Origin: a virus
UHGV virus genome: UHGV-1837213
Length of the DNA stretch: 27,443 bases
Strand: one strand, 5' to 3'
In this document: one piece after another, positions 11,673 to 26,990 of the stretch
Layout: every line of letters begins with the position of its first letter
How positions within the stretch are numbered: the first letter of the stretch is position 1
Translations under genes and position numbers: made by a program
The notes under the pieces: model-generated
What the model saw: the letters and a program-made list of their open reading frames with translations, nothing else
The model's database searches: none
What the model was told of the DNA's origin: nothing

Positions 11673-12929
11673 CTATCGAGAACCACCAAGAATAACACGG
11701 TTTTTGACTGGATACCTACGATGTACTGGATAGCCCAATGCGTCTGCACTATGCTCAATGCCACCTGTCTTATCCATATCTCGTGTTCCAGGCTTGTAGA
11801 TGACTTTTTCCAGTGAATCAATCAAATGCTTGCACTTCGGATCGATATACAGCCGGATATCTCCAGATGCGGACATCAGCATTCGGTTAACAGCATTAAC
11901 ACGATCCGCAATTGGCGGGTGCTTTTTCGAATAATCGACACGTAAGAATCCCTTCTCTTTGAATATGTCTACGTCAGACTCCCCACGAGCATGTTGGCGA
12001 TAAGCACCTGCCGGATCTGGAAATACCGTTACCTGTGATTTCCAGCGCCAGAAGCGTCTCTCAAGCTCATCACAAACTTCTGCCGTGTTAGAGGAAAAGA
12101 GCACCAATTCATCAATTGCCCATAGCTCACCATTTGGCTGAGGTTGCAAAATTACGGAAGACATCGGGTCAATGTTGAAGTCCTGCCCTACCCATATAGG
12201 CAACCGAGGGTTGAACTGAAGCGGTTTTACATGCACGTTACGATCGAACGGGTAGTAAACGCGCCCGGACATGTTCTCAAAGCTCGCCAGGTACTCCTGA
12301 GCGAACGATTTCGGGTCCATATCGTTCTTAGCAGCTTCAATTTCCGCCGTAGGCACAAACGGAGAATCGGCAGTTACAAACTGCCAGCTCTTCCACTGTC
12401 CCTTTCTTTGCAGCTCTACGTTCTGGCCTATAGTCCACAGTTTGTGAAATTCCGAGAAGCCTTTTGGCGTACCAATGATCAGTGCACCGCCGCGTGTCGA
12501 TGAAAGAGTAGGTCGTAACACCTTGTACCAGGTGTCAGCCTTCATATCCTGAAATTCATCAAGCACTACAAAATGCAACGCTACGCCGCGCAGAGTGTCA
12601 GGCTTATCAGCACCTTTGAGGGCGATCTCCGAACCGTTCTTCAACACGATTGTCATCGTGGTGTCGTTCTTTTTCCTAACCCACTTACGAGGCAGAACTT
12701 CCTGTAGATCGTCCCACAAAATCTGGCGAGCCATCTGGTAAGTAGGAGCGACATACCAGACCCTTTGCTTTTTTTCCTTTGCCGCCGCACGAATAATAGT
12801 GGAGATCGACAACCGGGATTTTCCCCAGCGTCGACCAGCACAAACAACTTTAAATCGATGCGGAGACTGGAAGACTTTCATCTGTCCAGAATGCAGTTGC
12901 ACAAGACTGAGCGAGGACGGGATTGCCAT
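11673..12929 (-). CDS. Terminase large subunit, 418 aa
   Basis: N-terminal P-loop-like motif VVCAGRRWGKS; its start overlaps the small terminase stop (TGATG); followed by the portal gene. Confidence 0.85.
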   Translation of the reverse strand: MAIPSSLSLVQLHSGQMKVFQSPHRFKVVCAGRRWGKSRLSISTIIRAAAKEKKQRVWYVAPTYQMARQILWDDLQEVLPRKWVRKKNDTTMTIVLKNGSEIALKGADKPDTLRGVALHFVVLDEFQDMKADTWYKVLRPTLSSTRGGALIIGTPKGFSEFHKLWTIGQNVELQRKGQWKSWQFVTADSPFVPTAEIEAAKNDMDPKSFAQEYLASFENMSGRVYYPFDRNVHVKPLQFNPRLPIWVGQDFNIDPMSSVILQPQPNGELWAIDELVLFSSNTAEVCDELERRFWRWKSQVTVFPDPAGAYRQHARGESDVDIFKEKGFLRVDYSKKHPPIADRVNAVNRMLMSASGDIRLYIDPKCKHLIDSLEKVIYKPGTRDMDKTGGIEHSADALGYPVHRRYPVKNRVILGGSR

Positions 12930-13561
12930 TATTCGTCCTCCCCTTCACTTCCATCATCTGTCGCATCAAATTCGCTTAGAGCTTCTTCTTCCAACGTCTC
13001 AAGCAATTCGTCATCGATGATTTCAGGCTCGTCGTCTTCCTGACGTAATTTCGCCACCTGGGAAGGCGTAAGCTCACCAAATACCAGGTTCGGAATTTCT
13101 TCCTCGTCATTTTCCGCATGATCCATGCCCAATGCTTTGGACGAAACTTCAAAGCATTTTGCAAGGGTATTACTGGCTCTCTGTAAGCTCTTGAGAGAAT
13201 CCTCAATCGCCCCTAAAGGCTTACCCTCACGTTTGGCCGTAGTGACTTCGACCATCACCATCTGCCCCAACGCATACGCCCAGCCGTCATAACGTGTACG
13301 ACGTTCTTCTATCTTTTCCGCACGGGCTTTAGCGCGAAGCTCTGCGTCAGATTTAAGAGACTCACGAACCATCTTCCCAACAGAGTCCGCGCCTTTCTCT
13401 AATCCTCGCTTTTTGAAATGTCTGGAGAGTGTTTCACGACGAATGCCGTACTCTTCCTCCAGCTTTGAGAGTGTATATTCGCCTGACGTCCATTTGGCTT
13501 CAGCTTCGGCCCACTCCGCTGGTGTCAGGCGAGTTTTTACCTCGTCTTTTTCGACCGTCAT
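12929..13561 (-). CDS. Terminase small subunit (DNA-binding), 210 aa
   Basis: HTH-like N-terminal region and strongly acidic C-terminus; translationally coupled to the large terminase. Confidence 0.7.
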   Translation of the reverse strand: MTVEKDEVKTRLTPAEWAEAEAKWTSGEYTLSKLEEEYGIRRETLSRHFKKRGLEKGADSVGKMVRESLKSDAELRAKARAEKIEERRTRYDGWAYALGQMVMVEVTTAKREGKPLGAIEDSLKSLQRASNTLAKCFEVSSKALGMDHAENDEEEIPNLVFGELTPSQVAKLRQEDDEPEIIDDELLETLEEEALSEFDATDDGSEGEDE

Positions 13562-13631
13562 AGATCCCTCTAAAACACACAGAGCGCGTCCATGCGCTCT
13601 AAAACAACTTGTTTACTGCATCTGCTAACCA

Positions 13632-13662
13632 ACTTGTTTTCTGGGGTGTTTAATTAGGTCTG
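13632..13662 (-). promoter_or_regulatory. Copy of the conserved promoter/leader element upstream of the small terminase gene
   Basis: Minus-sense CCTAATTAAACACCCCAGAAAACAAGTTGGTT, similar to the elements upstream of the small acidic genes. Confidence 0.45.
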
Positions 13663-13673
13663 GCATGTCTTAC

Positions 13674-13736
13674 GAAGCCTGCTTCCGTATATATTTAATA
13701 AGTTACTTATTATTTATATATACAGAAGCAGGTCTT
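13674..13736. promoter_or_regulatory. Large nested inverted repeat upstream of the terminase genes
   Basis: Arms of about 18 bp (GCCTGCTTCCGTATATAT / ATATATACAGAAGCAGGT) flank a central palindrome ATAAGTTACTTAT. Confidence 0.5.
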
Positions 13737-13756
13737 TAAATAAGCTCCCAGACCGA

Positions 13757-14023
13757 TTACATCACCAGTAACTTCGCTTTGGCTCGACCTAAAGTAGTTA
13801 ACCCAAGAGTTCGGCGGTGATAGCGATTGTCACTGCGTTGGCGCGTATGCCCTTTCTCCACCAGCCCCTTTTTTATCAGAGCGCGAATTGAGAACTGGAT
13901 ACTTTGCTTGGTTGTCTTGTACGGCAAAACTTCAAGCAATTCGTCCAGGTCAAGTAGATGACCTCGCTCATAACCGAGATTGAGCGTTTTGATGATGTCC
14001 TTTTGTTTATCGGTTAACGTCAT
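13757..14023 (-). CDS. Small basic protein, possible winged-helix DNA-binding protein, 88 aa
   Basis: Last gene of the coupled operon. Basic C-terminus with HTH-like segment KQSIQFSIRALIKKGLVEKG. Confidence 0.5.
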   Translation of the reverse strand: MTLTDKQKDIIKTLNLGYERGHLLDLDELLEVLPYKTTKQSIQFSIRALIKKGLVEKGHTRQRSDNRYHRRTLGLTTLGRAKAKLLVM

Positions 14024-14032
14024 GGCAAATCC

Positions 14033-14923
14033 TTATGCCGGTAAAGCAATTTCTAACGGTTTATCCAAAGGTTGTTTGTCGAATGCCAGCAGTGGCAGCG
14101 TGTCAGGCAGTCGACGACCAAAGTCAGGGTTTCGATACACACCATACAACGGAGACGTAAAGCTCAGGTTGTGAATGTCCTTGAGCAGCTTCACAATGCT
14201 GGCCTCGTCCACCAGACTGTCGGCAATGTCCTGAATCGTCGTGCCACGATTCCGCCCAGCTTTTGCCAGGGAACTGTTCTTGTGGTAGTCCGCCACCAGA
14301 TCACGCAGTGCACGGCGACGACGAGACTCGCTCATAGCGAACAACTCTTTGACGATCGCCTCGTTATCACCCGGGTCGGAGCGGAAATGGCGCTGGAACA
14401 CACGCAGTGCACTTTCATAGCTCTTCGGTCGCTCAGGGCGGATGAACTTAAACCCTGCTTTCATGGCGAAGGGATTGTATTTGCTCATCGATGACTGGAT
14501 CTCAATGATTGGCCGGTCATGCATCCTGCTAACCAGGTTAATCATTCGATAAGAGACGCCTACGCCACGATACTGAGTATCCACAACTGAGCGACTGATC
14601 ACCGCAAAGTTGTTATTCACGTACCGGCCCCAGTACTGGTTAGCCACGGTGGTATTGGTGGTTGGTTTCAACTTAGGAAACATGCGATGGCGAGGTGCCA
14701 GCAGAAGTTTCGGGTAAGCCATAACCACGACGCCCACCAGACGGTCATCAAGTTCGCAGCGATAGTAAGTTGGCGCGAAAGGTTTGCCGTCTGTTTTGTA
14801 GTGAAGCGACTTAAGAGCGTGCCAGTCCTCTACAGTTCCCTTTGTGACAGTCATTCGCTCCAGAAAGTCCAGATGACGCGGAAACTCTTCAGGGCGGTAG
14901 CGTTTGATGATGATATCTGCCAT
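14033..14923 (-). CDS. GNAT-like acyltransferase-fold protein (ORF track 14033..14932; ATG at 14923)
   Basis: Motif VDTQYRGVGVSYRMIN resembles GNAT motif A (Q/R-x-x-G-x-G/A) preceded by a hydrophobic strand VVVMAY. Start coupled to the upstream stop, with AGGTGA RBS. Fold assignment is by eye only. Confidence 0.55.
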   Translation of the reverse strand: MADIIIKRYRPEEFPRHLDFLERMTVTKGTVEDWHALKSLHYKTDGKPFAPTYYRCELDDRLVGVVVMAYPKLLLAPRHRMFPKLKPTTNTTVANQYWGRYVNNNFAVISRSVVDTQYRGVGVSYRMINLVSRMHDRPIIEIQSSMSKYNPFAMKAGFKFIRPERPKSYESALRVFQRHFRSDPGDNEAIVKELFAMSESRRRRALRDLVADYHKNSSLAKAGRNRGTTIQDIADSLVDEASIVKLLKDIHNLSFTSPLYGVYRNPDFGRRLPDTLPLLAFDKQPLDKPLEIALPA

Positions 14924-14928
14924 GTCGA

Positions 14929-15183
14929 TCACCTGCGCTCGATATTGGCATTGATGAAATCCAGGCGAAGAGACTCCATCGCCCCTACCATGACATACGG
15001 GCGCCCGCCGTTATGCCAGCAATCAAGAACACTACCGTCGTTGTTGATCATCAACAGCGCCAGGCTCTGGCTTTTTCCTTCTCTGGCGTGCTGAAGTGCT
15101 TCTTCCAGCAGGCGGATGACTTCCACGTTGTTGTTATCAGTCTCTTTCGATGGCTTCAGCTCTACGATCTTCAAATCAGGCAT
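14929..15183 (-). CDS. Hypothetical small protein, 84 aa
   Basis: ORF overlapping both neighbours within the operon. Confidence 0.5.
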   Translation of the reverse strand: MPDLKIVELKPSKETDNNNVEVIRLLEEALQHAREGKSQSLALLMINNDGSVLDCWHNGGRPYVMVGAMESLRLDFINANIERR

Positions 15184-15814
15184 ATTCCACCTTCACGCGT
15201 TCTTTGTAGTGCTTGGTGATCTGCATATCCGGGCGCAGCGCGTTCTTCAGGTCTTCGTGAGTCGTCGCCACCATTACCGTCGCACCAACCTTTCGAGCGG
15301 CACGCTGGAGGTTAGACGCCACAACCTGAGCGGTTACACGGTCTAGAACAGCGCCGAACTCGTCAGCAGCCCATACTTTAGCGCCTGACTCAATCAGTTT
15401 GGCAATCTTGAGACGATATTTCTGGCCGTCTGACATTTCAGAAGGCTTGCGAACAAACAGATATGCATCGTTCAGACCAGCCATAGATAACAACCCAAGC
15501 GCATCACTGGTCGTTTTGCCCAACTGATCGATGACGTTAACCTCATTATCGAAGGTAAAATCATCGATGGAGGCTACAGACAGCCCTTCATCCTTCATCT
15601 GTCGTTGCAACTCGCGCAGCACAACGGATTTGCCGGAACCGGATTGGCCGGTGATGTACACCACATCGCCCTGCTTCACTTCCAGCTCCAGATTGTCGTA
15701 AAGCGTCCACTCTTTTTCGTCCAGGCCAAGCCCGAACGACTCAGCGATTTCCAACGTGCGCGTGGTTTTATTTACGCGTGTCTGAAACGATACGTTGATG
15801 ATGTATTTGCTCAT
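15176..15814 (-). CDS. Soluble ABC-type ATPase, 212 aa
   Basis: Walker A GQSGSGKS, signature-like SDGQKYRL, Walker B VWAADEF, H-loop TTHED. No transmembrane domain. Start overlaps the upstream stop (ATGA). Confidence 0.8.
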   Translation of the reverse strand: MSKYIINVSFQTRVNKTTRTLEIAESFGLGLDEKEWTLYDNLELEVKQGDVVYITGQSGSGKSVVLRELQRQMKDEGLSVASIDDFTFDNEVNVIDQLGKTTSDALGLLSMAGLNDAYLFVRKPSEMSDGQKYRLKIAKLIESGAKVWAADEFGAVLDRVTAQVVASNLQRAARKVGATVMVATTHEDLKNALRPDMQITKHYKERVKVEYA

Positions 15815-16479
15815 GCAGCCATCTCCCCGGAAGAGATCTTCTCCGCATATGCCACAAATGCGTCTACCCCGCTTTCTCCCGTCATTTCTTCCATATGGGC
15901 AAGCAAATCACCAACAACAATGGCAGAGCCAGCAGGGAGCGTTTTAAAGCCCAATACGTCGACAACACGTACTTCTTCCGCTGCAACTTCACGACTGATC
16001 TCGGTGTGTTCATCCTTCTGTCGTTTAGTTTCTTCGCCAAGATCGATAACTAGCGAGTCGGTGTCCATTTCTTCTGTCATACTGCCAACGAGAACATTCA
16101 ACTCACGCTCTTCGAAGCCGAAAACCTCGATATCGTCCAGAACAAGCGACTCAAGCTCTTTCTGTAGCTTAATTGCATCGTAATCAATGCTGGCAAGTCG
16201 GTTATCTTCAAGGCGCTTTGCACGTACCTCGTCATCACTCAGATCATCACGAACAATAACCGGTACGCGCTCAAGTCCAGCAAAAATTGCAGCCTCACGG
16301 CGGCCGTGGCCAGTAATAATTACGTCGTTCTTATCGACCGTAATTGGCTGGTCAAATCCGCGCTTTTTAATGGCTGCGGCCAGATCTCTGATCTGCTGTT
16401 CATCATGCTTTTTGGCATTCATCTCATAGGGAATAAGATCTGCCGGGTCGCGATATACGATTTCAAACTTTTTGGTCAT
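15811..16479 (-). CDS. ParB-like nuclease domain protein, paralog 2 (ORF track 15811..16512; ATG at 16479)
   Basis: ParB/sulfiredoxin-type motif ITGHGRREAA; acidic C-terminal half. The start overlaps the upstream stop (TAATG) and is preceded by an AAGGAG RBS. Confidence 0.75.
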   Translation of the reverse strand: MTKKFEIVYRDPADLIPYEMNAKKHDEQQIRDLAAAIKKRGFDQPITVDKNDVIITGHGRREAAIFAGLERVPVIVRDDLSDDEVRAKRLEDNRLASIDYDAIKLQKELESLVLDDIEVFGFEERELNVLVGSMTEEMDTDSLVIDLGEETKRQKDEHTEISREVAAEEVRVVDVLGFKTLPAGSAIVVGDLLAHMEEMTGESGVDAFVAYAEKISSGEMAA

Positions 16480-17159
16480 TACATACGCTCCTTGTAGTAG
16501 TCGACCAGCCACACCAGAGCCTCACCAGCGTTCTCCATTTCATTACCGGTGTTAATAGCCTGCTCTTTGATGATGTTTTTTATGGTTTCTGCAACACGAT
16601 CTGACGCATCGAAAGTTACTTTGAAGCGCATGGTCTGATGTTCCGCACCCACACGTTCGGTTTTCTCTCGTTTGTCGGTATCGACAGGCTCATCACTACC
16701 ACGAGACAACGCCTCCAGTGCTTCAAGGTCGATTGCCGCCTCTTTTGCTAAAACCATCGAGATTTCGTCGTCATACGGAGCGATTTCAGACAGTTGATAG
16801 TCAAGTTCTGACTGAATTTCTTCAATGAAGCGTTGCAATGCGATTTGGTCGTCTTCACCGTATCGCTCGTTGTCCACCAGTGACATCTGTTTAGCTACGA
16901 CATCGCTAATTTTGCCCACAGAAAGCACCGGAACCGTTGAAATTCCTTGCTCAATAGCAGCACGCCAGCGATGTTCACCGCCGAGGATTTCAAAAAATCC
17001 ATCTTCAAGTTCACGAGCCAAAATTGGCTTAAAAAAGCCCAATTTTTCGATAGAACCTTTCAGTTTTTCAAAATTCTGCGCACCAACCGAATTGGTGTTC
17101 CAGGTATTCGGGCGAAGGTTGGCAACATCAACCTGCAAAATCGTGATTTTTACATCCAT
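16479..17159 (-). CDS. ParB-like nuclease domain protein, paralog 1 (ORF track 16479..17177)
   Basis: Motifs LRPNTWNTN and ILGGEHRWRAA are typical of ParB N-terminal domains. First gene of the operon, divergent from the helicase gene. Confidence 0.75.
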   Translation of the reverse strand: MDVKITILQVDVANLRPNTWNTNSVGAQNFEKLKGSIEKLGFFKPILARELEDGFFEILGGEHRWRAAIEQGISTVPVLSVGKISDVVAKQMSLVDNERYGEDDQIALQRFIEEIQSELDYQLSEIAPYDDEISMVLAKEAAIDLEALEALSRGSDEPVDTDKREKTERVGAEHQTMRFKVTFDASDRVAETIKNIIKEQAINTGNEMENAGEALVWLVDYYKERM

Positions 17160-17177
17160 TTTATTGCTACAATCCAC

Positions 17178-17195
17178 TAAGTAATCACTTACTTA
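17178..17195. promoter_or_regulatory. Palindrome TAAGTAATCACTTACTTA in the divergent promoter region
   Basis: Inverted repeat AAGTAA-TCAC-TTACTT lies just upstream of a perfect TATAAT (about 17197-17202) for the plus-strand helicase gene. Similar TAAGTA/TACTTA palindromes recur elsewhere. Confidence 0.45.
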
Positions 17196-17241
17196 TTATA
17201 ATAGCCAAATAACATACAAAAGGCACTAAGGAAAGAGGTTT

Positions 17242-18801
17242 ATGACTGTTCGGATTGTATCTAACGCAGTAAATGCGCTTATTTCTGGCGCAGATGACAA
17301 GGTAAAGCAACTGGTGCAGCAAATGTTGAGCTACGAAGTCGAGACTGGCGACTGGAAGGGCACAAGCACGATGTTCAACTGGAGTAAAAACTCGTTCCCT
17401 GCTGGCTTTGCCAAGCCTGTAGCGGCGAACTTGAACAAGGCGGGCATCAAATGTGTTCATATCCGCAAACACAAAGCCCCGGCGCTTGGTAAACCAAATC
17501 CGGCGGTTAACCCATTCCCATACAATCCTGATTATGCGTATCAGGATCAGACTGTGGAAACACTGGTTCGAGAGGGAATGATGATTGCGCAGATCGCTAC
17601 TGGTGGCGGGAAATCTAACGTTGCCTGCAAAGCAGCTGCACGTATCGGTCGAATGACATTATTTTTAACAACCCGCTCTGTTCTGATGTTTCAAATGGCC
17701 GAAAACTTCCAGAGATCCATCGACTACCGCGCCGAAAATGGCGAACCGTGGTTAAAGGGCCAAAAGGTTGGAGTCATTGGCTCGGGTGAGTTCCAGGTAT
17801 CACGACATATCAACGTCGCTACAGTTCAAACTCTGGCAAGTTTCCTTGAAGAACCACCACGCGATGCAACACCAGATAAAAAGAGCTACCACCTCAAACG
17901 TCGGGAGCTAGTGAAACGCTTCCTTTCAAGTGTGTCTCTGCTTATTCTGGAAGAAGCGCATGAGTCTTCAGGCTCTAATTTCTATGACATTGCCAGATTA
18001 TGTGTGAACGCAGACTATCGTCTGGCGCTTACAGCCACGCCGTTCATGAAGGATTCGACGGAAGCCAACATGCGCCTGATGGCGGTGGCCGGGCGAATTG
18101 AAATTAAAGTCACAGAAAAGTATCTGATTGATCGAGGCATTCTGGCAAAGCCGTACTTCCTTTATCATAAAGTTGCCTACAAGCCAGACGAGGCCAGAAT
18201 CAAGGCCGAACTTGCCAACAAACACCTCAATTTTAGAGTTGGTATGAGCACCGCCTACCAAAAGGCTTATCAGTTGGGGATCGTGTATAATTTGGGACGT
18301 AACGAGGCCATAGTGCGCGAGGCATTGCTTTATAAGCAACATTCACTCAACTGCATGACTCTGGTTCGTCTTAAACGCCACGGGCAAATCCTGATGGAGA
18401 TGATGAAGGAGTCAGGTCTTAAAGTTGATTTCATCTATGGGGAATCTAACCAGACGACAAGGCAAGCAAAGCTGAATAGTTTAGCGTCTGGTGAAATAGA
18501 TGTTTTAATAGGCTCGACTATTCTGGATGTTGGTGTTGATGTGCCAAGCGTTGGTGCGGTCATTCTTGCTGGTGGTGGGAAAGCAGAAGTTGAAATGAGA
18601 CAGCGTGTCGGTCGTGGCTTACGAGCCAAAAAAAATCAGGCAAACGTGTGTTTTATCACTGATTTCATTGACATTAGCAACAAATACCTGTTGTCTCACT
18701 CTTATGAGCGAAAACACATCATCGACACCACACCTGGCTTTGCAGAAGGTGTATTGCCTATTGATGGAGCATTCGATTTTGGAGTTCTGAAACGAGATTA
18801 G
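17242..18801 (+). CDS. Superfamily 2 (DEAD/DEAH-box-like) helicase, 519 aa
   Basis: Motif I ATGGGKS, motif II LILEEAHES, motif III LALTATPF, motif VI QRVGRGLR. RBS AAGGAAAGAGG. N-terminal domain of about 110 aa of unknown function. Confidence 0.85.
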   Translation: MTVRIVSNAVNALISGADDKVKQLVQQMLSYEVETGDWKGTSTMFNWSKNSFPAGFAKPVAANLNKAGIKCVHIRKHKAPALGKPNPAVNPFPYNPDYAYQDQTVETLVREGMMIAQIATGGGKSNVACKAAARIGRMTLFLTTRSVLMFQMAENFQRSIDYRAENGEPWLKGQKVGVIGSGEFQVSRHINVATVQTLASFLEEPPRDATPDKKSYHLKRRELVKRFLSSVSLLILEEAHESSGSNFYDIARLCVNADYRLALTATPFMKDSTEANMRLMAVAGRIEIKVTEKYLIDRGILAKPYFLYHKVAYKPDEARIKAELANKHLNFRVGMSTAYQKAYQLGIVYNLGRNEAIVREALLYKQHSLNCMTLVRLKRHGQILMEMMKESGLKVDFIYGESNQTTRQAKLNSLASGEIDVLIGSTILDVGVDVPSVGAVILAGGGKAEVEMRQRVGRGLRAKKNQANVCFITDFIDISNKYLLSHSYERKHIIDTTPGFAEGVLPIDGAFDFGVLKRD

Positions 18802-19108: not shown

Positions 19109-19573
19109 ATGAAGTCTCCCATACTGTTCACTTTCTGTTCTAAAACTATCATGAAATACTCGCTTCTCCCTCTACTAACGTTACCAGTGTTGATGCTTAC
19201 CGCGTGCCAATCACGCCCAATATCAATCCATGACGCCAAACCAGCACCGCAGGCCAAAGTGTTCAAGTATCAAAGCGCAGCGCCAGCTACGTTGGTGGTA
19301 ATGAGAGACACAGGTTTTGTAGGAGCTGGATGTGATGCTTCCATTTTCATCAACGGCGAAACTGTCGCAAAACTGGCTACAGGCGAAAAAGCGACTTTCC
19401 ATTTAAATGCCGGAGAATTAATTGTGGGTGCATCTCTTGAAGGTGCAGGTTTATGTGCTCTAAACCCCGCTCGTCAAGAGCGAGAAACGACTCTGAAGAA
19501 TGGAGACACAAAAGCGTTCAGGGTGTTCACCAGCAATTCTGGTGACATCGACATTCTGCCAACAACTCTGTGA
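19109..19573 (+). CDS. Putative lipoprotein, 154 aa
   Basis: AGGGAG RBS. Signal peptide with lipobox-like LTAC (Cys as predicted lipidation site). An alternative start at 19151 (MKYSLLPLLTLPVLMLTAC) would give a canonical short lipoprotein signal. Confidence 0.65.
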   Translation: MKSPILFTFCSKTIMKYSLLPLLTLPVLMLTACQSRPISIHDAKPAPQAKVFKYQSAAPATLVVMRDTGFVGAGCDASIFINGETVAKLATGEKATFHLNAGELIVGASLEGAGLCALNPARQERETTLKNGDTKAFRVFTSNSGDIDILPTTL

Positions 19574-19577
19574 TGAC

Positions 19578-20102
19578 ATGACAACCAAAGATATTACCTA
19601 CGGTATCCAAGCTGAACTCTGGCCGCGAGATTACACTAACGTTGAAAAACTACTGATGTTCTGGCGCAGAGAACAAATTCCTGTAAGGGTCACTCTCGAA
19701 GATGGCCAGGCGTTTTGCATGTACGTTTATGGCCTCATGCCATCTCGTAACAAAGTTGACCTTTGCCCAGCCCCTTTTGACAAAGAAAATCGTATAAGGC
19801 TCCCACTTGAACGCATTAGTACAATTGAATCAGGTGTGGTTGACAGTATCGCTCACGATTTCAAAGGTCGACTAACAGTTCACCCTGATTATGTCGATAA
19901 TCGGCCATCACGCCGCGATTTTTTTGCAATTTGCAACCAAGCCTACAAAGCAAACAAATCTATAAGGGTGTACATGGCGGATGGCCGTGAAATTGAGGGG
20001 GTGTCAGCAGGCGCAGATGCTTGTCAGGTTACACTACGTGTCGAGAACGGTAGAAAAATAGTTGTTTTGTTCGATTGGGTTGAACGAATTTTGCCTTTTT
20101 GA
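19578..20102 (+). CDS. Hypothetical protein (ORF track 19500..20102; start probably ATG at 19578)
   Basis: The longer ORF overlaps the lipoprotein gene by 74 nt. The ATG at 19578 follows the lipoprotein stop. Confidence 0.5.
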   Translation: MTTKDITYGIQAELWPRDYTNVEKLLMFWRREQIPVRVTLEDGQAFCMYVYGLMPSRNKVDLCPAPFDKENRIRLPLERISTIESGVVDSIAHDFKGRLTVHPDYVDNRPSRRDFFAICNQAYKANKSIRVYMADGREIEGVSAGADACQVTLRVENGRKIVVLFDWVERILPF

Positions 20103-20105
20103 GTT

Positions 20106-20414
20106 ATGAAATCGATATTGTTACCACCATTATTTTTACTTTGCTCAGTTGCGGCAAATGCAATGGACTATAAGCCTGTCATTCAGTCGCTGATGAATGA
20201 CGTGTGCTCAACGTCTCAGAATGTATCAGTTTGCATGTATCAATTTTCGGCAGCCGTAAAAGCAGGAAAAGCGATAGGTGAGAATGTGGAACTGTGTAAG
20301 AAAGTGGCAAATGAAGAACGGGCAATGTTGGATTGCGAATCTAGCGAGTCATCGGCACAGTTCGTTGATGCGCTATTTGACACCAATCGTAAGGCTGTAG
20401 AGTCTGTTCAATAA
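20106..20414 (+). CDS. Small secreted (probably periplasmic) Cys-containing protein, 102 aa
   Basis: N-terminal signal peptide MKSILLPPLFLLCSVAANA; followed by a strong terminator. Confidence 0.6.
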   Translation: MKSILLPPLFLLCSVAANAMDYKPVIQSLMNDVCSTSQNVSVCMYQFSAAVKAGKAIGENVELCKKVANEERAMLDCESSESSAQFVDALFDTNRKAVESVQ

Positions 20415-20425
20415 ATCTATAAGGT

Positions 20426-20456
20426 TAATAACCGGCTAAGTCCGGTTATTATTTTT
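20426..20456 (+). terminator. Rho-independent terminator
   Basis: Stem TAATAACCGG/CCGGTTATTA with loop CTAAGT, then TTTTT. Confidence 0.7.
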
Positions 20457-20604
20457 CACATCACTTCTTTATATCTATAAATAAAATAATCTAAATATAT
20501 ATAAGGTCGAAAGCCGGAATCGATTATTTATTTAGGGAACACCTTCGACGATCTCGCTTTTATTTCTAGGACTTTCATCCCTGCAAAAAATTTTAAAAAA
20601 ACAC

Positions 20605-20632
20605 TTGCAATCTTTTTTCGCGTATCGATAAT
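20605..20632 (+). promoter_or_regulatory. Sigma70-type promoter for the AT-rich cassette
   Basis: TTGCAA, 16-nt spacer, GATAAT, preceded by an A/T tract; located about 65 nt upstream of the ATG at 20698. Confidence 0.55.
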
Positions 20633-20697
20633 TGAACTCGTCGAAAGCGAAGACGCTAACGACAATAAATTTTAAATTTACATAAGGAAAAATTATC

Positions 20698-21348
20698 ATG
20701 GCTAACATTATCATTTCTAAAAAATCCATCATTGAAGCTGCTTCCATTGTATCCGATGAACTGCGCGAAAAAGCAGATCTGGCAACTCAAACATATAACG
20801 AACATTATAAAAATGGTACGCACACTAAAGCAGACAAAGCAAATATGCAAGCTGCGACCACTAAACTTGCTTACTTCATCAACAACGTCGTAAACGCAGT
20901 AGAAGACGAAAAATTATGCTCTGTTTTCTACTATGCGATTAAAGCAAGCAAACAAGCGCCAGAAGTATTTTTTCGTGATGCAATGACTAATAGTTATTCT
21001 CTGGAAAAACTGGTTTATCTGGTTAAATCAATTAAATCTGGTAAATGCGTTTATTCCATCGCTGATATGTCTGGATCTCGTGTATTCGCTTTAATCGATA
21101 TGATTAACGACGAGATCGACACGTTCACCAATGGCGCTGTTTTCGATTTAATGAATGAAGCTAAAAAAGCGTGTGAAATTAAATTGGACGCTGGCTATAC
21201 TCAAGCCAACCAGTTGATCAATCTTTGCGAACGTCTTGGACTTGTTGAAAAAGTCAAAGGAGCTGGGAGTGCGAAAGCTGGTACTCAGCAATATCGCTTC
21301 ATTAAAAATGATTTCTACAATTATTTAGCTGATGCTTTCAAAGCGTAA
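20698..21348 (+). CDS. Hypothetical protein, 216 aa, in low-GC cassette
   Basis: AAGGAAAAA RBS. Codon usage is AT-rich with third-position A/T preference, distinct from the flanking genes. Confidence 0.7.
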   Translation: MANIIISKKSIIEAASIVSDELREKADLATQTYNEHYKNGTHTKADKANMQAATTKLAYFINNVVNAVEDEKLCSVFYYAIKASKQAPEVFFRDAMTNSYSLEKLVYLVKSIKSGKCVYSIADMSGSRVFALIDMINDEIDTFTNGAVFDLMNEAKKACEIKLDAGYTQANQLINLCERLGLVEKVKGAGSAKAGTQQYRFIKNDFYNYLADAFKA

Positions 21349-21360
21349 TTAATGGAATCA

Positions 21361-21379
21361 AGCGCCCACTATGGGCGCT
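21361..21379 (+). repeat. 19-bp hairpin AGCGCCCACTATGGGCGCT (copy 1, intergenic)
   Basis: Perfect 8-bp stem with 3-nt loop. An identical copy at about 21857-21875 forms the cassette terminator. Confidence 0.6.
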
Positions 21380-21396
21380 TTAAAGGAGCTTTGAAA

Positions 21397-21600
21397 ATGG
21401 TCAGCTATGACAAGATCCGCGCGGAATATCGCGCAAAGTATCGCGCTTATAAACTAGAATTAATCGATGATTTAATCGCGCAACGCGACCAATTAAATTT
21501 TACGTTTTCTGATTTGCTTAACAGCAAGCGAGATTGCAAGCGCAAACGTGAATACTTACGTTTAAGCGCATTAATCGGAAAACTTCAAAATTCTATTTAA
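21397..21600 (+). CDS. Hypothetical small basic protein (ORF track 21352..21600; start probably ATG at 21397)
   Basis: The ATG at 21397 is preceded by AAAGGAG. The longer ORF would read through the hairpin. Confidence 0.5.
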   Translation: MVSYDKIRAEYRAKYRAYKLELIDDLIAQRDQLNFTFSDLLNSKRDCKRKREYLRLSALIGKLQNSI

Positions 21601-21620
21601 TTTTTTTAAGGAGCTTAATC

Positions 21621-21851
21621 ATGTTTGTTCTTATCGCTGGCGTTAACGTCCATAACGAATATTATGTTAATCGCATCGCTGGGATCGCTGGTTACGCTGG
21701 GCGCGCAGTCGAGTTTATCGATGAAACAACGCGTAAAATTGATTTATTGAGCGACCAGGAGCGAAAAAAAGCAGACGTGAACGACGCTGATATATTTTTA
21801 ATGTTAAAAGCGTTTGTAGAAATGGGATTTAAAATCAGTTTACACAAATAA
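21621..21851 (+). CDS. Hypothetical small protein, 76 aa
   Basis: Strong TAAGGAG RBS; followed immediately by a terminator. Confidence 0.6.
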   Translation: MFVLIAGVNVHNEYYVNRIAGIAGYAGRAVEFIDETTRKIDLLSDQERKKADVNDADIFLMLKAFVEMGFKISLHK

Positions 21852-21856
21852 AATCG

Positions 21857-21884
21857 AGCGCCCACTATGGGCGCTTTTTTCGTT
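21857..21884 (+). terminator. Rho-independent terminator (hairpin copy 2 plus T-run)
   Basis: AGCGCCCACTATGGGCGCT followed by TTTTTTCGTTT. Confidence 0.75.
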
Positions 21885-21901
21885 TCCAATACTTCCACAA
21901 T

Positions 21902-21930
21902 AACGCGCCATTGATGGCGCGTTTTTTATT
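21902..21930 (+). terminator. Second tandem terminator hairpin
   Basis: Stem AACGCGCCAT/ATGGCGCGTT followed by TTTTTTATT. Confidence 0.6.
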
Positions 21931-22342
21931 GTCTTTAACTCACTCCAACAACATAAAAATAAGCGCCAAAATAACGCCATAAACGCGCTTTTATATCCTT
22001 ACCAGTACATACCCATTACTTAACACATTAACGCGCTTAAAACGCGTTATATTGCGCTATAGCGTATGGTTAATCATTGGCTTTTAGTCTTGCTATGTGA
22101 TCCGCGTTTATTTGTCGGCGCGGATCGGCATTTTGTTTTGTTCCGTATCCGCTCGCGTATTATGTGCGCGTGATTTTTCACATAATCACACCACTTAATC
22201 ACGTATGTGATTATGCTACGAAAGAAATCTGGATGTCTCAGGCGACGAAAGTCATCATAATTTTCCCCGCTCGCCTGTCCGACAACCGCTGGTTGGATTC
22301 CACCAGCTTCCCGATGTTTTTTTCTACATAAAGGCGAATGCA

Positions 22343-22951: not shown

Positions 22952-22972
22952 GATTAATTCCTTATCGTAAAT

Positions 22973-23005
22973 AACAAATTGTTTTCTTGTTGGTGTTAAT
23001 TATCG
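22973..23005 (-). promoter_or_regulatory. Conserved promoter/leader element, copy A
   Basis: Minus-sense CGATAATTAACACCAACAAGAAAACAATTTGTT with a -10-like GATAAT, and TTGACG about 15-16 nt upstream. Confidence 0.55.
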
Positions 23006-23437: not shown

Positions 23438-23457
23438 GAGCATATCCTCACTGCGTA

Positions 23458-23489
23458 AACATGTTGTTTTCTTGTTGGTGTAATTATCG
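23458..23489 (-). promoter_or_regulatory. Conserved promoter/leader element, copy B
   Basis: Minus-sense CGATAATTACACCAACAAGAAAACAACATGTT. Confidence 0.55.
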
Positions 23490-24204: not shown

Positions 24205-24225
24205 GAAAACAAATTGTTATCTGGC
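24205..24225. promoter_or_regulatory. Degenerate or inverted copy of the conserved element core (copy C)
   Basis: AGAAAACAAATTGTTATCTGG, containing the palindrome AACAA-A-TTGTT. Confidence 0.35.
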
Positions 24226-25098: not shown

Positions 25099-25110
25099 CA
25101 CAACTCCGTA

Positions 25111-25144
25111 AACAACTTGTTTTCTCAATGGCGTAAATAATACC
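25111..25144 (-). promoter_or_regulatory. Conserved promoter/leader element, copy D
   Basis: Minus-sense TGGTATTATTTACGCCATTGAGAAAACAAGTTGTT; extended -10-like TGGTATTAT with TTGTAG upstream. Confidence 0.5.
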
Positions 25145-25581: not shown

Positions 25582-25594
25582 AAAGCAATCCTTA

Positions 25595-25626
25595 AACAAC
25601 ATGTTTTCTTGATGGTGTTATTATCG
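25595..25626 (-). promoter_or_regulatory. Conserved promoter/leader element, copy E
   Basis: Minus-sense CGATAATAACACCATCAAGAAAACATGTTGTT. Confidence 0.55.
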
Positions 25627-26161: not shown

Positions 26162-26990
26162 TCCCTCCCCACTTATACATACCTGGCTTCTTCGCTATAC
26201 ATGTTGTGTTTTATCTGTCTCAACCTCTCTATAGGCGTTAATGCTCACTCCTTCCAGAATGTTCTATACGGCGACTATTTCTGTTGGTGAATTGGGCGTG
26301 TTGTTCTCTCTGTCGGTGTAAATGGTTTCGTTCGTTTTGCGGTGGTTCTTCTATGGGGTGTTCTCGTCGTTTTGGTGATTGTTCTTCTCCGTGTATGGAG
26401 TAATGGCAGGTGGGCGATTGCTTTCGTTATTGTGTTTGAGTTGTTTGTCTGGAGTGTGTGAAAGGCTTTTGTAGTTATTCGTGTATTGGGTAATGGCGTT
26501 TCCCGTGATTGTTATGTTTCGTGTCTTTTGGGATTGAGAGAAACCTTGCGGTTACAGGCTTCGTTGGGGTTTCAGCGGTTCAGGTGTTTCTTCGCTGTTT
26601 GGGTAATGGCGTGTCGTGGGTATCGCGCGTATGAATGTTTTCGGATTGCCTGTGAAAGTTAGGTTGGTTGTCCGGTAGCCTGGGGAGAAGAGGTGGGTCT
26701 TTTCGGTAGCCTGCCATAAAGAGGTTGGTTGTTTTGGGGAATGGCATGTGTGTTATTTAGTTGTTTTGTTATGCCTGAAAATAAGTTGTTTATATGGTTG
26801 TGTAACGCAACGGGAACGATTTTGAGCGTGTGTTTTTGTTGGTAGTGTGTTGGGTCGTCTGTGGTGAAAATTGGACGCTGTGGCGCTGTCTGCTGCGTAG
26901 AATTACGGGTATAAGCAGTGATGTGTGAAAACGTCAATTTTTTAGACCAAATCGGATGAAAGCGTTGATGTTTCGTTGATCTGTTATTCA
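26162..26990 (-). ncRNA. Candidate long untranslated transcript or structural DNA element; ORF-free with extreme strand skew (G+T rich on plus, C+A rich on minus)
   Basis: No convincing ORF on either strand. One sampled 60-nt stretch was about three quarters G+T. Bounded by a copy of the conserved element (about 26991-27011) and a terminator-like hairpin. Internal short repeats such as GGGTAATGGCG and CGGTAGCCTG. Transcription is inferred, not shown. Confidence 0.3.

Follow-up and report, generated by a model that had tools for sequence, protein, structure and literature searches.

The DNA examined in this study is the whole 27,443-nucleotide stretch of UHGV virus genome UHGV-1837213, referred to here as the window. 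We focused on a block of six minus-strand genes (13757-17177), which lies next to the terminase genes and combines two ParB-like proteins with an ABC ATPase and a GNAT-fold protein. Our main finding is that the ABC ATPase and the GNAT protein are the two halves of one enzyme that is split in the window: hundreds of viral and archaeal proteins carry both parts fused, ABC first and GNAT second. This relationship is the key fact about the block and lay beyond the reach of an earlier note on this DNA, which was made from the sequence alone. We propose that the block encodes an acyltransferase that depends on ATP, uses acyl-CoA and works on phage DNA with the ParB proteins as helpers, and we give this reading a probability of roughly 0.5. 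More broadly, we are fairly confident that the target of the module is DNA and that it operates together with replication or packaging. The genes of the block are the following.

16479-17177, minus strand: ParB1 (Pfam ParB_N, phrog_723)
15811-16479, minus strand: ParB2, 222 amino acids (Pfam ParB_N, phrog_930)
15176-15814, minus strand: soluble ABC-type ATPase, 212 amino acids (ABC_tran and a complete motif set)
14929-15183, minus strand: open reading frame (ORF) of 84 amino acids in a variable cargo slot (phrog_796, function unknown)
14033-14923, minus strand: GNAT-fold acyltransferase that makes up the C-terminal half of the split enzyme; residues ~170-258 form a helical insertion or extension
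13757-14023, minus strand: probable winged-helix protein of 88 amino acids, the last gene of the block (phrog_900, E 1.9e-45)

The 212-residue ATPase matches ABC_tran with an E value of 5.3e-13 (50.2 bits against a cut-off of 25), and its motifs can be read directly: Walker A GQSGSGKS at residues 56-63, the signature MSDGQ at 127-131, Walker B at D151-E152 and the H-loop at H186. The same motif set is also kept in the fused relatives. These features assign the protein to the ABC ATPase superfamily and not to the ParA-type ATPases, as the earlier note had judged. PHROGs and GenBank records name the neighboring GNAT protein 'ABC transporter'. We rejected a transporter, since no permease or transmembrane subunit is present in the block or conserved beside it, and the record names are propagated labels. 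The block contains no gene for a membrane partner.

No Pfam, NCBIfam or PADLOC model names the GNAT protein, which falls under the Pfam threshold (E 0.038), and searches of the PDB with its sequence and with its profile returned nothing meaningful. At the level of the family, 27-29 of 47 diverse members match Acetyltransf_1/7/10, with a best E value of 3.4e-9. The acyl-CoA pyrophosphate-binding loop (R-x-x-G-x-G/A/S) is present as R122-G-V-G125-V-S. G125 is invariant over the 47 diverse members, and both R122 and G125 are invariant in the 37-member family of split proteins. By its fold, its acyl-CoA loop and the Pfam membership of its family, this protein of 296-299 residues belongs to the GNAT superfamily. 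The GNAT-like fold that had been noticed beside the ParB-like proteins is thus a true one.

An exhaustive profile search with the GNAT family returned 956 relatives. Many of these are proteins of 440-500 residues in which an N-terminal ABC ATPase (Pfam ABC_tran) is followed by a GNAT part at about residues 200-480. The window ATPase is orthologous to residues ~1-220 of these fused proteins and collinear with their N-terminus, and the collinearity extends to an N-terminal F-G-L-G-(I/L)-D-E segment and to the Walker A region. With a hidden Markov model built from the fused proteins, the split ABC and GNAT ORFs are matched over complementary ranges. The fused form was counted in more than 350 viral contigs; matches to the fused protein, or to at least the ABC half of it, come from 89 records of cultured phages. 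The window halves are also orthologous, in the same order, to the COG2401-type proteins (e.g. MK0520), which carry the annotation 'ABC-type ATPase fused to a predicted acetyltransferase domain'; those proteins are fused, whereas the window enzyme is encoded by two genes with a cargo slot between them. Full-text literature searches found no paper on the COG2401-type family or on this module.

Some relatives are joined to the replication machinery itself. In a viral protein of 1260 residues, a family-B DNA polymerase with exonuclease and polymerase domains is fused to ABC-GNAT (L172:10001-13783, L173:10001-13783). This protein is listed in 35 blocks of the collection, of which 24 contigs were read, and genes for Prim-Pol, RecA and a 5'-3' exonuclease lie beside it. 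A second cluster of polymerase fusions was also found (P0178), and one ABC-GNAT member (P0168) carries an intein in its ABC part.

Both ParB-like proteins exceed the ParB_N (PF02195) cut-off of 26.3 bits, ParB1 with 49.9 bits (E 3.3e-13) and ParB2 with 35.0 bits (E 1.5e-8), which bears out the two paralogs described earlier. ParB1 has an N-terminal nucleoside triphosphate (NTP)-binding domain of the ParB/sulfiredoxin (Srx) fold, which an acidic linker connects to a conserved C-terminal segment of ~55 residues. ParB2 has the same layout of N-domain, linker and C-terminal segment, with 22% identity in the paralog alignment. ParB1 matches phrog_723 (E 2e-79) and the Spo0J/ParB/Noc N-domains in the PDB (E 2.6e-9), and ParB2 matches phrog_930 (E 1.2e-112). 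ParB2 also resembles the ParB domain of phage ParB-methyltransferase fusions, as it matches the N-terminus of phrog_498, 'DNA methyltransferase' (E 5.3e-32), and that of the PADLOC model MTase_II (E 2.7e-17). The motifs G66-G-E-H-R70 and D102-N103 of ParB1 are invariant in the paralog alignment, and G67, R70, D102 and N103 are unchanged in 10 orthologs and paralogs (GxxR box II and (D/E)-N-x-x-R box III). The corresponding motifs of ParB2 are G57-H-G-R60-R61 and D92-N93. Their N-terminal NTP-binding domain assigns both proteins to the ParB/Srx superfamily. Searches with ParB1 and with its profile returned nearly only near-identical clusters from Klebsiella and E. coli.

Database annotators label these two genes 'partition proteins'. 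In a Pfam scan, no helix-turn-helix (HTH) family was matched in either protein, and both score under the TIGR00180 cut-off of 58.45 bits (43.3 and 43.0). The shared C-terminal segment has no Pfam match. Residues 9-105 of ParB1 are confident in the AlphaFold model, and the remainder has a predicted local distance difference test (pLDDT) score below 50. A beta-alpha-alpha pattern in the C-terminal segment hinted at a ribbon-helix-helix, a fold that was not assigned, given an AlphaFold confidence below 50 and no match in Pfam. An architecture of nucleotide-binding and C-terminal domains, in which no HTH was detected, fits the layout of the helper ParB proteins discussed below, the C-terminal part being a low-confidence model.

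All six minus-strand ORFs were confirmed, and every junction described in the earlier note was present when read directly. ParB1 and ParB2 meet at TAATG (TAA 16481-16479, ATG 16479-16477), ParB2 and the ABC gene at ATGA (15814-15811), and the ABC gene and the 84-residue ORF overlap by 8 nt (ATGCCTGA, 15183-15176). The 84-residue ORF stops at TGA 14931-14929. The GNAT gene may start at GTG 14932, with a GTGA overlap, or at ATG 14923, 6 nt past that stop; ATG 14923 fits as the start because the homologues measure 296 residues. A 9-nt spacer with AAGGA precedes the ATG of the last gene at 14023. ParB2 starts at 16479, which gives 222 residues, and not at the start of a longer GTG ORF.

Over positions 13500-17500, identity is 99.1% with Escherichia phage CMS-2020a and 85% with Salmonella phage SSU5, and the window is therefore part of an SSU5-type phage-plasmid. 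The block heads a long minus-strand array: a TerS-like gene and TerL come next, as the earlier note had placed the terminase genes, and further large minus-strand ORFs lie downstream, first one of 524 residues at the portal position of related phages and then others as far as one of 1011 residues. On its other side, a helicase gene diverges from ParB1 across a 64-bp intergenic region that begins at 17178. These features serve as context.

17242-18801, plus strand: DEAD/ResIII helicase (DEAD E 1.5e-14, ResIII E 1.8e-14, Helicase_C E 4.4e-13)
13678-13732, no strand assigned: AT-rich palindrome of 55 nt between the block and terS, a candidate element
13580-13660, minus strand: promoter-like element, two palindromes and a GC hairpin just ahead of terS
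12929-13561, minus strand: TerS-like gene (phrog_867, E 2.2e-100)
11673-12929, minus strand: TerL (Terminase_6N E 3.1e-9, Terminase_6C E 3.2e-4)

The locus searches kept the best 80 matches, and the neighborhood samples are biased accordingly. Among 80 close relatives in IMG/VR, the order helicase (opposite strand), ParB1, ParB2, ABC, GNAT, winged-helix protein, TerS and TerL is invariant except in truncated contigs. It is also kept where the GNAT protein is only 40-45% identical, in an Ectothiorhodospira contig, a Piscirickettsiaceae contig and Pseudomonas phage nickie, and likewise in Rhizobium phage RHEph10 and Xanthomonas phage JGB6. The helicase is divergent from ParB1 in L002, L003, nickie, RHEph10 and JGB6 as well, and terS-terL lies directly downstream of the block in all relatives examined. 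Since the order persists both in the ~80 close relatives and at 40-45% GNAT identity, the block is more than a chance arrangement. A lack of co-conservation, which would have spoken against the module, is clearly not what was found.

The membership of the module has to be revised, however. In the slot between ABC and GNAT, the 84-residue ORF is present in 38 of the 80 relatives. The slot is empty in 20, where ABC and GNAT overlap directly, and holds a HExxH protein in the other 22. This last insert of ~540 nt, in Klebsiella-type relatives, encodes a protein of ~183 residues with a WHEALH (HExxH, metallopeptidase-like) motif (e.g. L220:7453-8004, L240:7456-8004) at the equivalent of window positions 14924-15175. 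Other genes occupy the slot in nickie, L002, L003 and RHEph10, and the slots of distant relatives hold gp49-like, RyR-domain, DUF2829 and membrane proteins. The ABC/GNAT junction is a hot spot for the exchange of accessory genes. Because the content of the slot varies in this way, five genes are core and one is exchangeable: the conserved unit consists of ParB1, ParB2, the ABC ATPase, the GNAT-fold protein and the small probable winged-helix protein, and the 84-residue ORF is cargo. The idea of one functional module therefore stands as a conserved unit, not as a set of six genes.

The last gene had been called a small DNA-binding protein, for which only weak winged-helix-turn-helix (wHTH) matches speak (Sta1/Lrs14 E 0.0025-0.004, LexA_DNA_bind E 0.072), the best being a CARF-associated wHTH in PADLOC (E 4.5e-5). 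A gene of 83-113 residues holds its position in L002, L003, nickie and RHEph10. The 88-residue protein is probably a wHTH protein and a candidate regulator.

Related enzymes were also found in quite different phages, several of these carry ParB genes, and the linkage to ParB thus crosses phyla. Streptococcus prophage 315.4 (L257:4486-6490) encodes, in order, a ParB that matches the profile of the ParB pair (E 1.8e-31), an ABC ATPase, an 89-residue gene product, an ASCH-domain protein (E 1.1e-5) two genes past the ABC gene, a DUF5681 TerS-like protein, TerL and a portal protein. ASCH/PUA-like domains are linked to the recognition or hydrolysis of N4-acylcytosine, and this neighbor is a possible hint at the chemistry. 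At the left end of the record of Gordonia phage Sisko, gene 1 encodes ParB, gene 2 ABC-GNAT, gene 3 a Formyl_trans_N protein mis-labelled 'tRNA-methyltransferase' (L258:1814-2464) and gene 4 the terminase. Leptospira phage LE4 has a ParB-like gp14 and an ABC-GNAT gp15, followed by three small genes, TerL and portal. We had considered the ParB pair to be limited to the SSU5/nickie clade, a view overturned by these Streptococcus, Gordonia and Leptospira loci and by Pirellulales loci.

Elsewhere the enzyme adjoins genes for packaging, replication or group transfer. In IMG/VR, the fused gene comes right after TerL on the same strand in 34 of 72 contigs, and TerL lies within three genes in 41 of the 72; the closest genome matches of these fused proteins are metagenome-assembled genomes (MAGs) of Bathyarchaeia and Nitrososphaeria. 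In 20 of these 72 contigs the contig ends directly after the fused gene, and provirus trimming could cause such ends. TerL-like genes also adjoin the enzyme in L008, L013 and L016. In Nonlabens phage P12024S the gene for the enzyme has primase on one side and helicase on the other, in Enterococcus phage 9184 it follows a DNA polymerase gene, and an SPbeta-like replication module contains it together with DnaB and a DHH protein. One co-directional string contains DnaB, ABC, several S-adenosylmethionine-dependent methyltransferases, a Mom-like gene (26.4 bits, just under the Pfam Mom cut-off of 27.1) and GNAT. Three unrelated phages have a Formyl_trans_N gene as the next gene downstream of the fused ABC-GNAT, namely Gordonia phage Sisko, Burkholderia phage phiE255 (gp30, L262:5089-5703) and a Porphyromonas phage (L260:5086-5559). 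In the Mu-like phiE255, the ABC-GNAT/formyltransferase pair is located past the tail-fibre genes, at the site that com and mom occupy in Mu. What these contexts share is DNA metabolism, and several of the partners transfer small groups.

Published systems provide precedents for such a module. For phage DNA thymine dioxygenases, a cognate ParB that has a nucleotide-binding and a C-terminal domain and lacks one for DNA binding is required for activity on double-stranded DNA, and it stimulates the enzyme specifically on that substrate (O'Toole et al., PNAS 2026, PMC13229309). Of the contigs mined there, 19% also contain a terminase and 27% a ParB (PMC13229309). Like the window, these 5mYOX/ParB pairs place a ParB-like protein, with no obvious DNA-binding domain, beside a DNA-acting enzyme, often near a terminase (PMC13229309). 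They differ in that the partner is an Fe/2-oxoglutarate dioxygenase with one ParB, whereas the window has an ABC-ATPase/GNAT enzyme with two, whose ParB dependence and action on DNA are only proposed. DpdB is summarised in the literature as a ParB-like ATPase that supports DpdA and without which the base is not inserted (PMC12839542). Many phages encode the ParB fold, which is fused to methyltransferases there, and a bacterial ParB-acetyltransferase fusion binds GTP (PMC12704722). DpdA/DpdB and the ParB-methyltransferase fusions couple a ParB/Srx-fold NTPase to a DNA-modifying enzyme, as is proposed for the window. Unlike them, the block has no transglycosylase or methyltransferase, and its ATP-using partner is a separate ABC ATPase.

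For the enzyme itself, two GNAT systems are relevant. Mom is a GNAT that acylates (glycylates) N6-adenine in double-stranded DNA using Gly-tRNA, and its residues W48, H58-Y59 and R111 are essential or strongly needed (PMC13219725). In the window's GNAT family, H44-Y45 (within a D-W-x2-L-x3-H-Y-K motif) and R114 on strand beta-4 are invariant or near-invariant, and they appear to parallel these Mom residues (Mu Mom, L256:1878-2603). Membership in the Mom family (PF25680) was rejected: hhalign gave it a probability of 0.3%, Mom is not among the Pfam families matched by the 47 members, and the similarity is one of fold only. Mom works alone with a charged tRNA, whereas in the window family the acyl-CoA loop is retained and the GNAT is coupled to an ATPase. 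Such coupling is known from TmcA/NAT10, in which an ATPase is coupled to an acetyl-CoA GNAT that acetylates cytosine N4 in RNA. TmcA/NAT10 resembles the window in that an NTPase module is coupled or fused to the acetyl-CoA GNAT, and TmcA acylates an exocyclic base amine. On the other hand, it has a helicase-type P-loop (PF05127), DUF1726, a tRNA-binding domain and an RNA substrate, whereas the window ATPase is of the ABC type. No homology to TmcA/NAT10 was detected past the GNAT fold. With its ABC-type ATPase the enzyme is not of the TmcA type, though it may function in a comparable way.

The proposal of a DNA acyltransferase follows from the DNA-metabolism contexts, the group-transfer partners and the published logic of ParB, Mom and TmcA. 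The catalytic motifs are intact in the ABC ATPase, the GNAT protein and both ParBs. We suggest that the soluble ABC subunit would dimerise around ATP, and that ParB1 and ParB2 may activate the enzyme or act in its loading, in that they would recruit it to phage double-stranded DNA or retain it there. ATP hydrolysis by the ABC subunit could drive DNA clamping, scanning or base exposure. The GNAT subunit would then pass an acyl group, probably acetyl, to a DNA amine, most simply an exocyclic base amine. Such an acyl mark might label phage DNA during replication and packaging and shield it from host nucleases. The small wHTH protein would be a regulator and the 84-residue ORF unrelated cargo. The analysis shows the identities of the domains, the intact catalytic motifs, the relation between split and fused forms, the conservation and the gene contexts. 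That DNA is the substrate and ParB a helper, and likewise the chemistry and the benefit to the phage, are inferred from homology, fusions and gene neighborhoods.

Several observations weigh against this proposal. The structural matches of the GNAT family are generic GNATs, and GNATs acetylate proteins and small molecules far more commonly than nucleic acids. The hhalign comparison of the GNAT-family profile with Mu Mom gave the low probability mentioned above, and no modified base has been reported for SSU5-type phages. No ParB was found nearby in the 72 IMG/VR contigs that carry the archaeal-MAG-like fused enzyme, whose frequent position directly after TerL (34/72) also fits a role in packaging. 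Conversely, no GNAT is detectable beside ParB and ABC in Streptococcus prophage 315.4. Because streptococcal phages keep ParB and ABC in this way, the ATPase must have a role that is independent of the acyltransferase.

The 195-bp gap between the block and terS contains several elements that bear on the alternatives. The palindrome at 13678-13732 has 17-nt arms that are 94% complementary and 16-nt inner arms. It is a single copy in the window and is kept in SSU5-like relatives while its flanks diverge. The linear records of SSU5 and Cyrano end within it, at the equivalents of window positions 13696 and 13695, and it could be a cos or pac site, a protein-loading site or an assembly break point. 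Closer to terS, a promoter-like element (TAATTAAACACC...) is followed by two AAACAA-N-TTGTTT palindromes (13602-13614 and 13627-13639). A GC hairpin with a U-rich tail (13580-13601, GAGCGC-ATGGAC-GCGCTC) comes just before the terS ribosome-binding site, gives a terminator-like scan match and shows compensatory changes in relatives (GAGCGC/GCGCTC to GAGCAC/GTGCTC). It is probably a terminator or attenuator ahead of the terminase genes.

The promoter-like element recurs in the window. An element of ~32 nt, (A)TAATTAACACCAACAAGA-AAACAA-N-TTGTTT, is found at 13602-13660, 22972-22984, 23457-23469, 24207-24219, 25110-25122, 25594-25606 and 26779-26791. It lies ~65 nt ahead of terS. Several small minus-strand ORFs at 22.9-26.8 kb have it too, ~11-25 nt ahead of the start codon where one is evident. 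Its palindromic core has 18 strand-matches against 4.2 expected, and the element looks like a phage-specific promoter plus operator. Taken together, these intergenic features suggest that the block is its own transcription unit, which ends before a regulated terminase promoter. The elements of the gap are candidate binding sites for the wHTH protein or the ParB pair.

Among the other explanations, a packaging accessory survives best, although we regard it as rather unlikely. The ParB pair would bind near a cos or pac site such as the palindrome at 13678-13732, and ABC-GNAT would help the terminase to begin or control the packaging of DNA that stays unmodified, for example through removal or acetylation of concatemer-bound proteins or through regulation of TerS, TerL or the portal. 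This explanation accounts for the position of the block directly upstream of terS-terL in every relative, for the proximity of TerL in the 72 viral contigs (34 directly upstream of the fused gene, 41 within three genes) and in L008, L013 and L016, for the recurrence of terminase adjacency in Streptococcus, Gordonia and Leptospira phages, and for the conserved palindrome with the SSU5 and Cyrano record ends between block and terS. However, a fusion to a replicative polymerase, a position between primase and helicase, and formyl- and methyltransferase partners are unexpected for such a factor, and a separate TerS candidate is present. Terminase adjacency does not discriminate between packaging and DNA modification, because DNA-modification genes commonly adjoin terminases (PMC13229309).

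It is also conceivable, but improbable in our judgement, that the enzyme acetylates proteins or small molecules for host takeover or anti-defence, with ParB only targeting it to DNA-bound substrates. Nucleoid-associated proteins, defence proteins or a metabolite would be the targets. The best structural matches of the GNAT protein are protein N-terminal and lysine acetyltransferases (RimI, Naa10/50, Gcn5 and Sulfolobus Pat), its family members match canonical acetyl-CoA GNAT families in Pfam, and the neighboring variable slot holds cargo of an accessory type.

A direction toward tRNA or translation is very improbable. ABC and GNAT, in some phages with the formyltransferase, would act on aminoacyl-tRNA or RNA, like TmcA, Fmt and the GNAT toxins, but the ParB partners, the polymerase fusion and the terminase and replication neighborhoods point to DNA. 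Moreover, no RNA-binding domain was detected, and the ATPase is of the ABC type and not of the TmcA helicase type. A GNAT toxin-antitoxin pair was rejected too. Toxins of the TacT/AtaT type are small stand-alone proteins of ~170 residues with an adjacent antitoxin and a mobile, patchy distribution, whereas the present protein has 296-299 residues with a helical insertion, an ABC fusion or obligate ABC partner and a fixed backbone position.

A known defence system was likewise rejected, as PADLOC matches only a generic ATPase and the methyltransferase N-terminus. A host defence system is unlikely in any case, because the module sits in the conserved phage backbone.

Plasmid partition, with ParB1 and ParB2 as centromere binders and the ABC ATPase in place of ParA, has in its favor the two ParB-fold proteins, the phage-plasmid element, the nearby palindrome as a candidate parS site and the 'partition proteins' annotation. 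It is nevertheless hardly credible, because SSU5 has a separate ParA-like gene ~30 kb away and phages for which no plasmid stage is known carry the module too. The ParA-like gene of SSU5 (L264:497-1162; SSU5 record 30497-31162) is followed by small ORFs, lies far from the ParB paralogs and is probably the real plasmid-partition locus. No ParA was found within the window; in RHEph10, a ParA-like gene lies a few genes past the helicase. The same module is present in integrated Streptococcus prophages and in Gordonia and Leptospira phages, and its core enzyme in contigs that match archaeal MAGs. The block shares with ParABS the N-terminal NTP-binding domain and the GxxR and (D/E)N motifs of ParB. 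Unlike ParABS, it has no ParA and no detected HTH centromere-binding domain (TIGR00180 being under its cut-off), and it contains a GNAT, which has no place in partition.

The earlier note had stated that the block is not a standard partition or packaging cassette, and this judgement holds. Of the four functions that it offered (DNA modification, anti-defence, defence and unusual partition), the comparative evidence favors DNA modification, makes defence unlikely and disfavors partition.

Two further features of the window concern the host and the history of the element. A 200-residue protein at 19500-20102 (plus strand) matches Flag1_repress, the FljA-type repressor of phase-1 flagellin, in Pfam (E 2.5e-84), and the phage-plasmid may therefore interfere with the expression of host flagellin. 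The G+C content is 0.37-0.39 at 20000-22000 and ~0.47 elsewhere in the window, which suggests recently acquired cargo around a 216-residue ORF (20698-21348) that has no Pfam match.

SSU5-type phage-plasmids are found widely among clinical Enterobacteriaceae, and many of the records come from Klebsiella. Antibiotic-resistance genes are frequent cargo of phage-plasmids as a group (PMC9600943). The module described here is best classed as a putative ParB-assisted phage DNA-modification system in which the enzyme would be an uncharacterised ATPase-coupled acyltransferase. ParB-fold activators of phage DNA-modifying enzymes, outside chromosome segregation, have been known only since 2025-2026. If our proposal is true, the ParB-helper principle extends to acyl transfer and gains an ATP-driven step. 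The enzyme family is large (956 relatives), reaches several bacterial phyla and archaeal MAG matches, and is mis-annotated throughout as 'ABC transporter'. As a tentative and rather doubtful extension, the split ABC/GNAT pair may be the first representative of a large class, so far unrecognised, of ATP-driven enzymes that acylate DNA in bacterial and archaeal viruses. These enzymes would place an undescribed acyl mark (e.g. acetyl) on an exocyclic base amine, which a formyltransferase would elaborate in some phages, and they would be delivered by ParB-fold clamps in some lineages and welded to the replicative polymerase in others. If the DNA is modified, the module would represent a new anti-restriction strategy of these phages and a potential tool enzyme.

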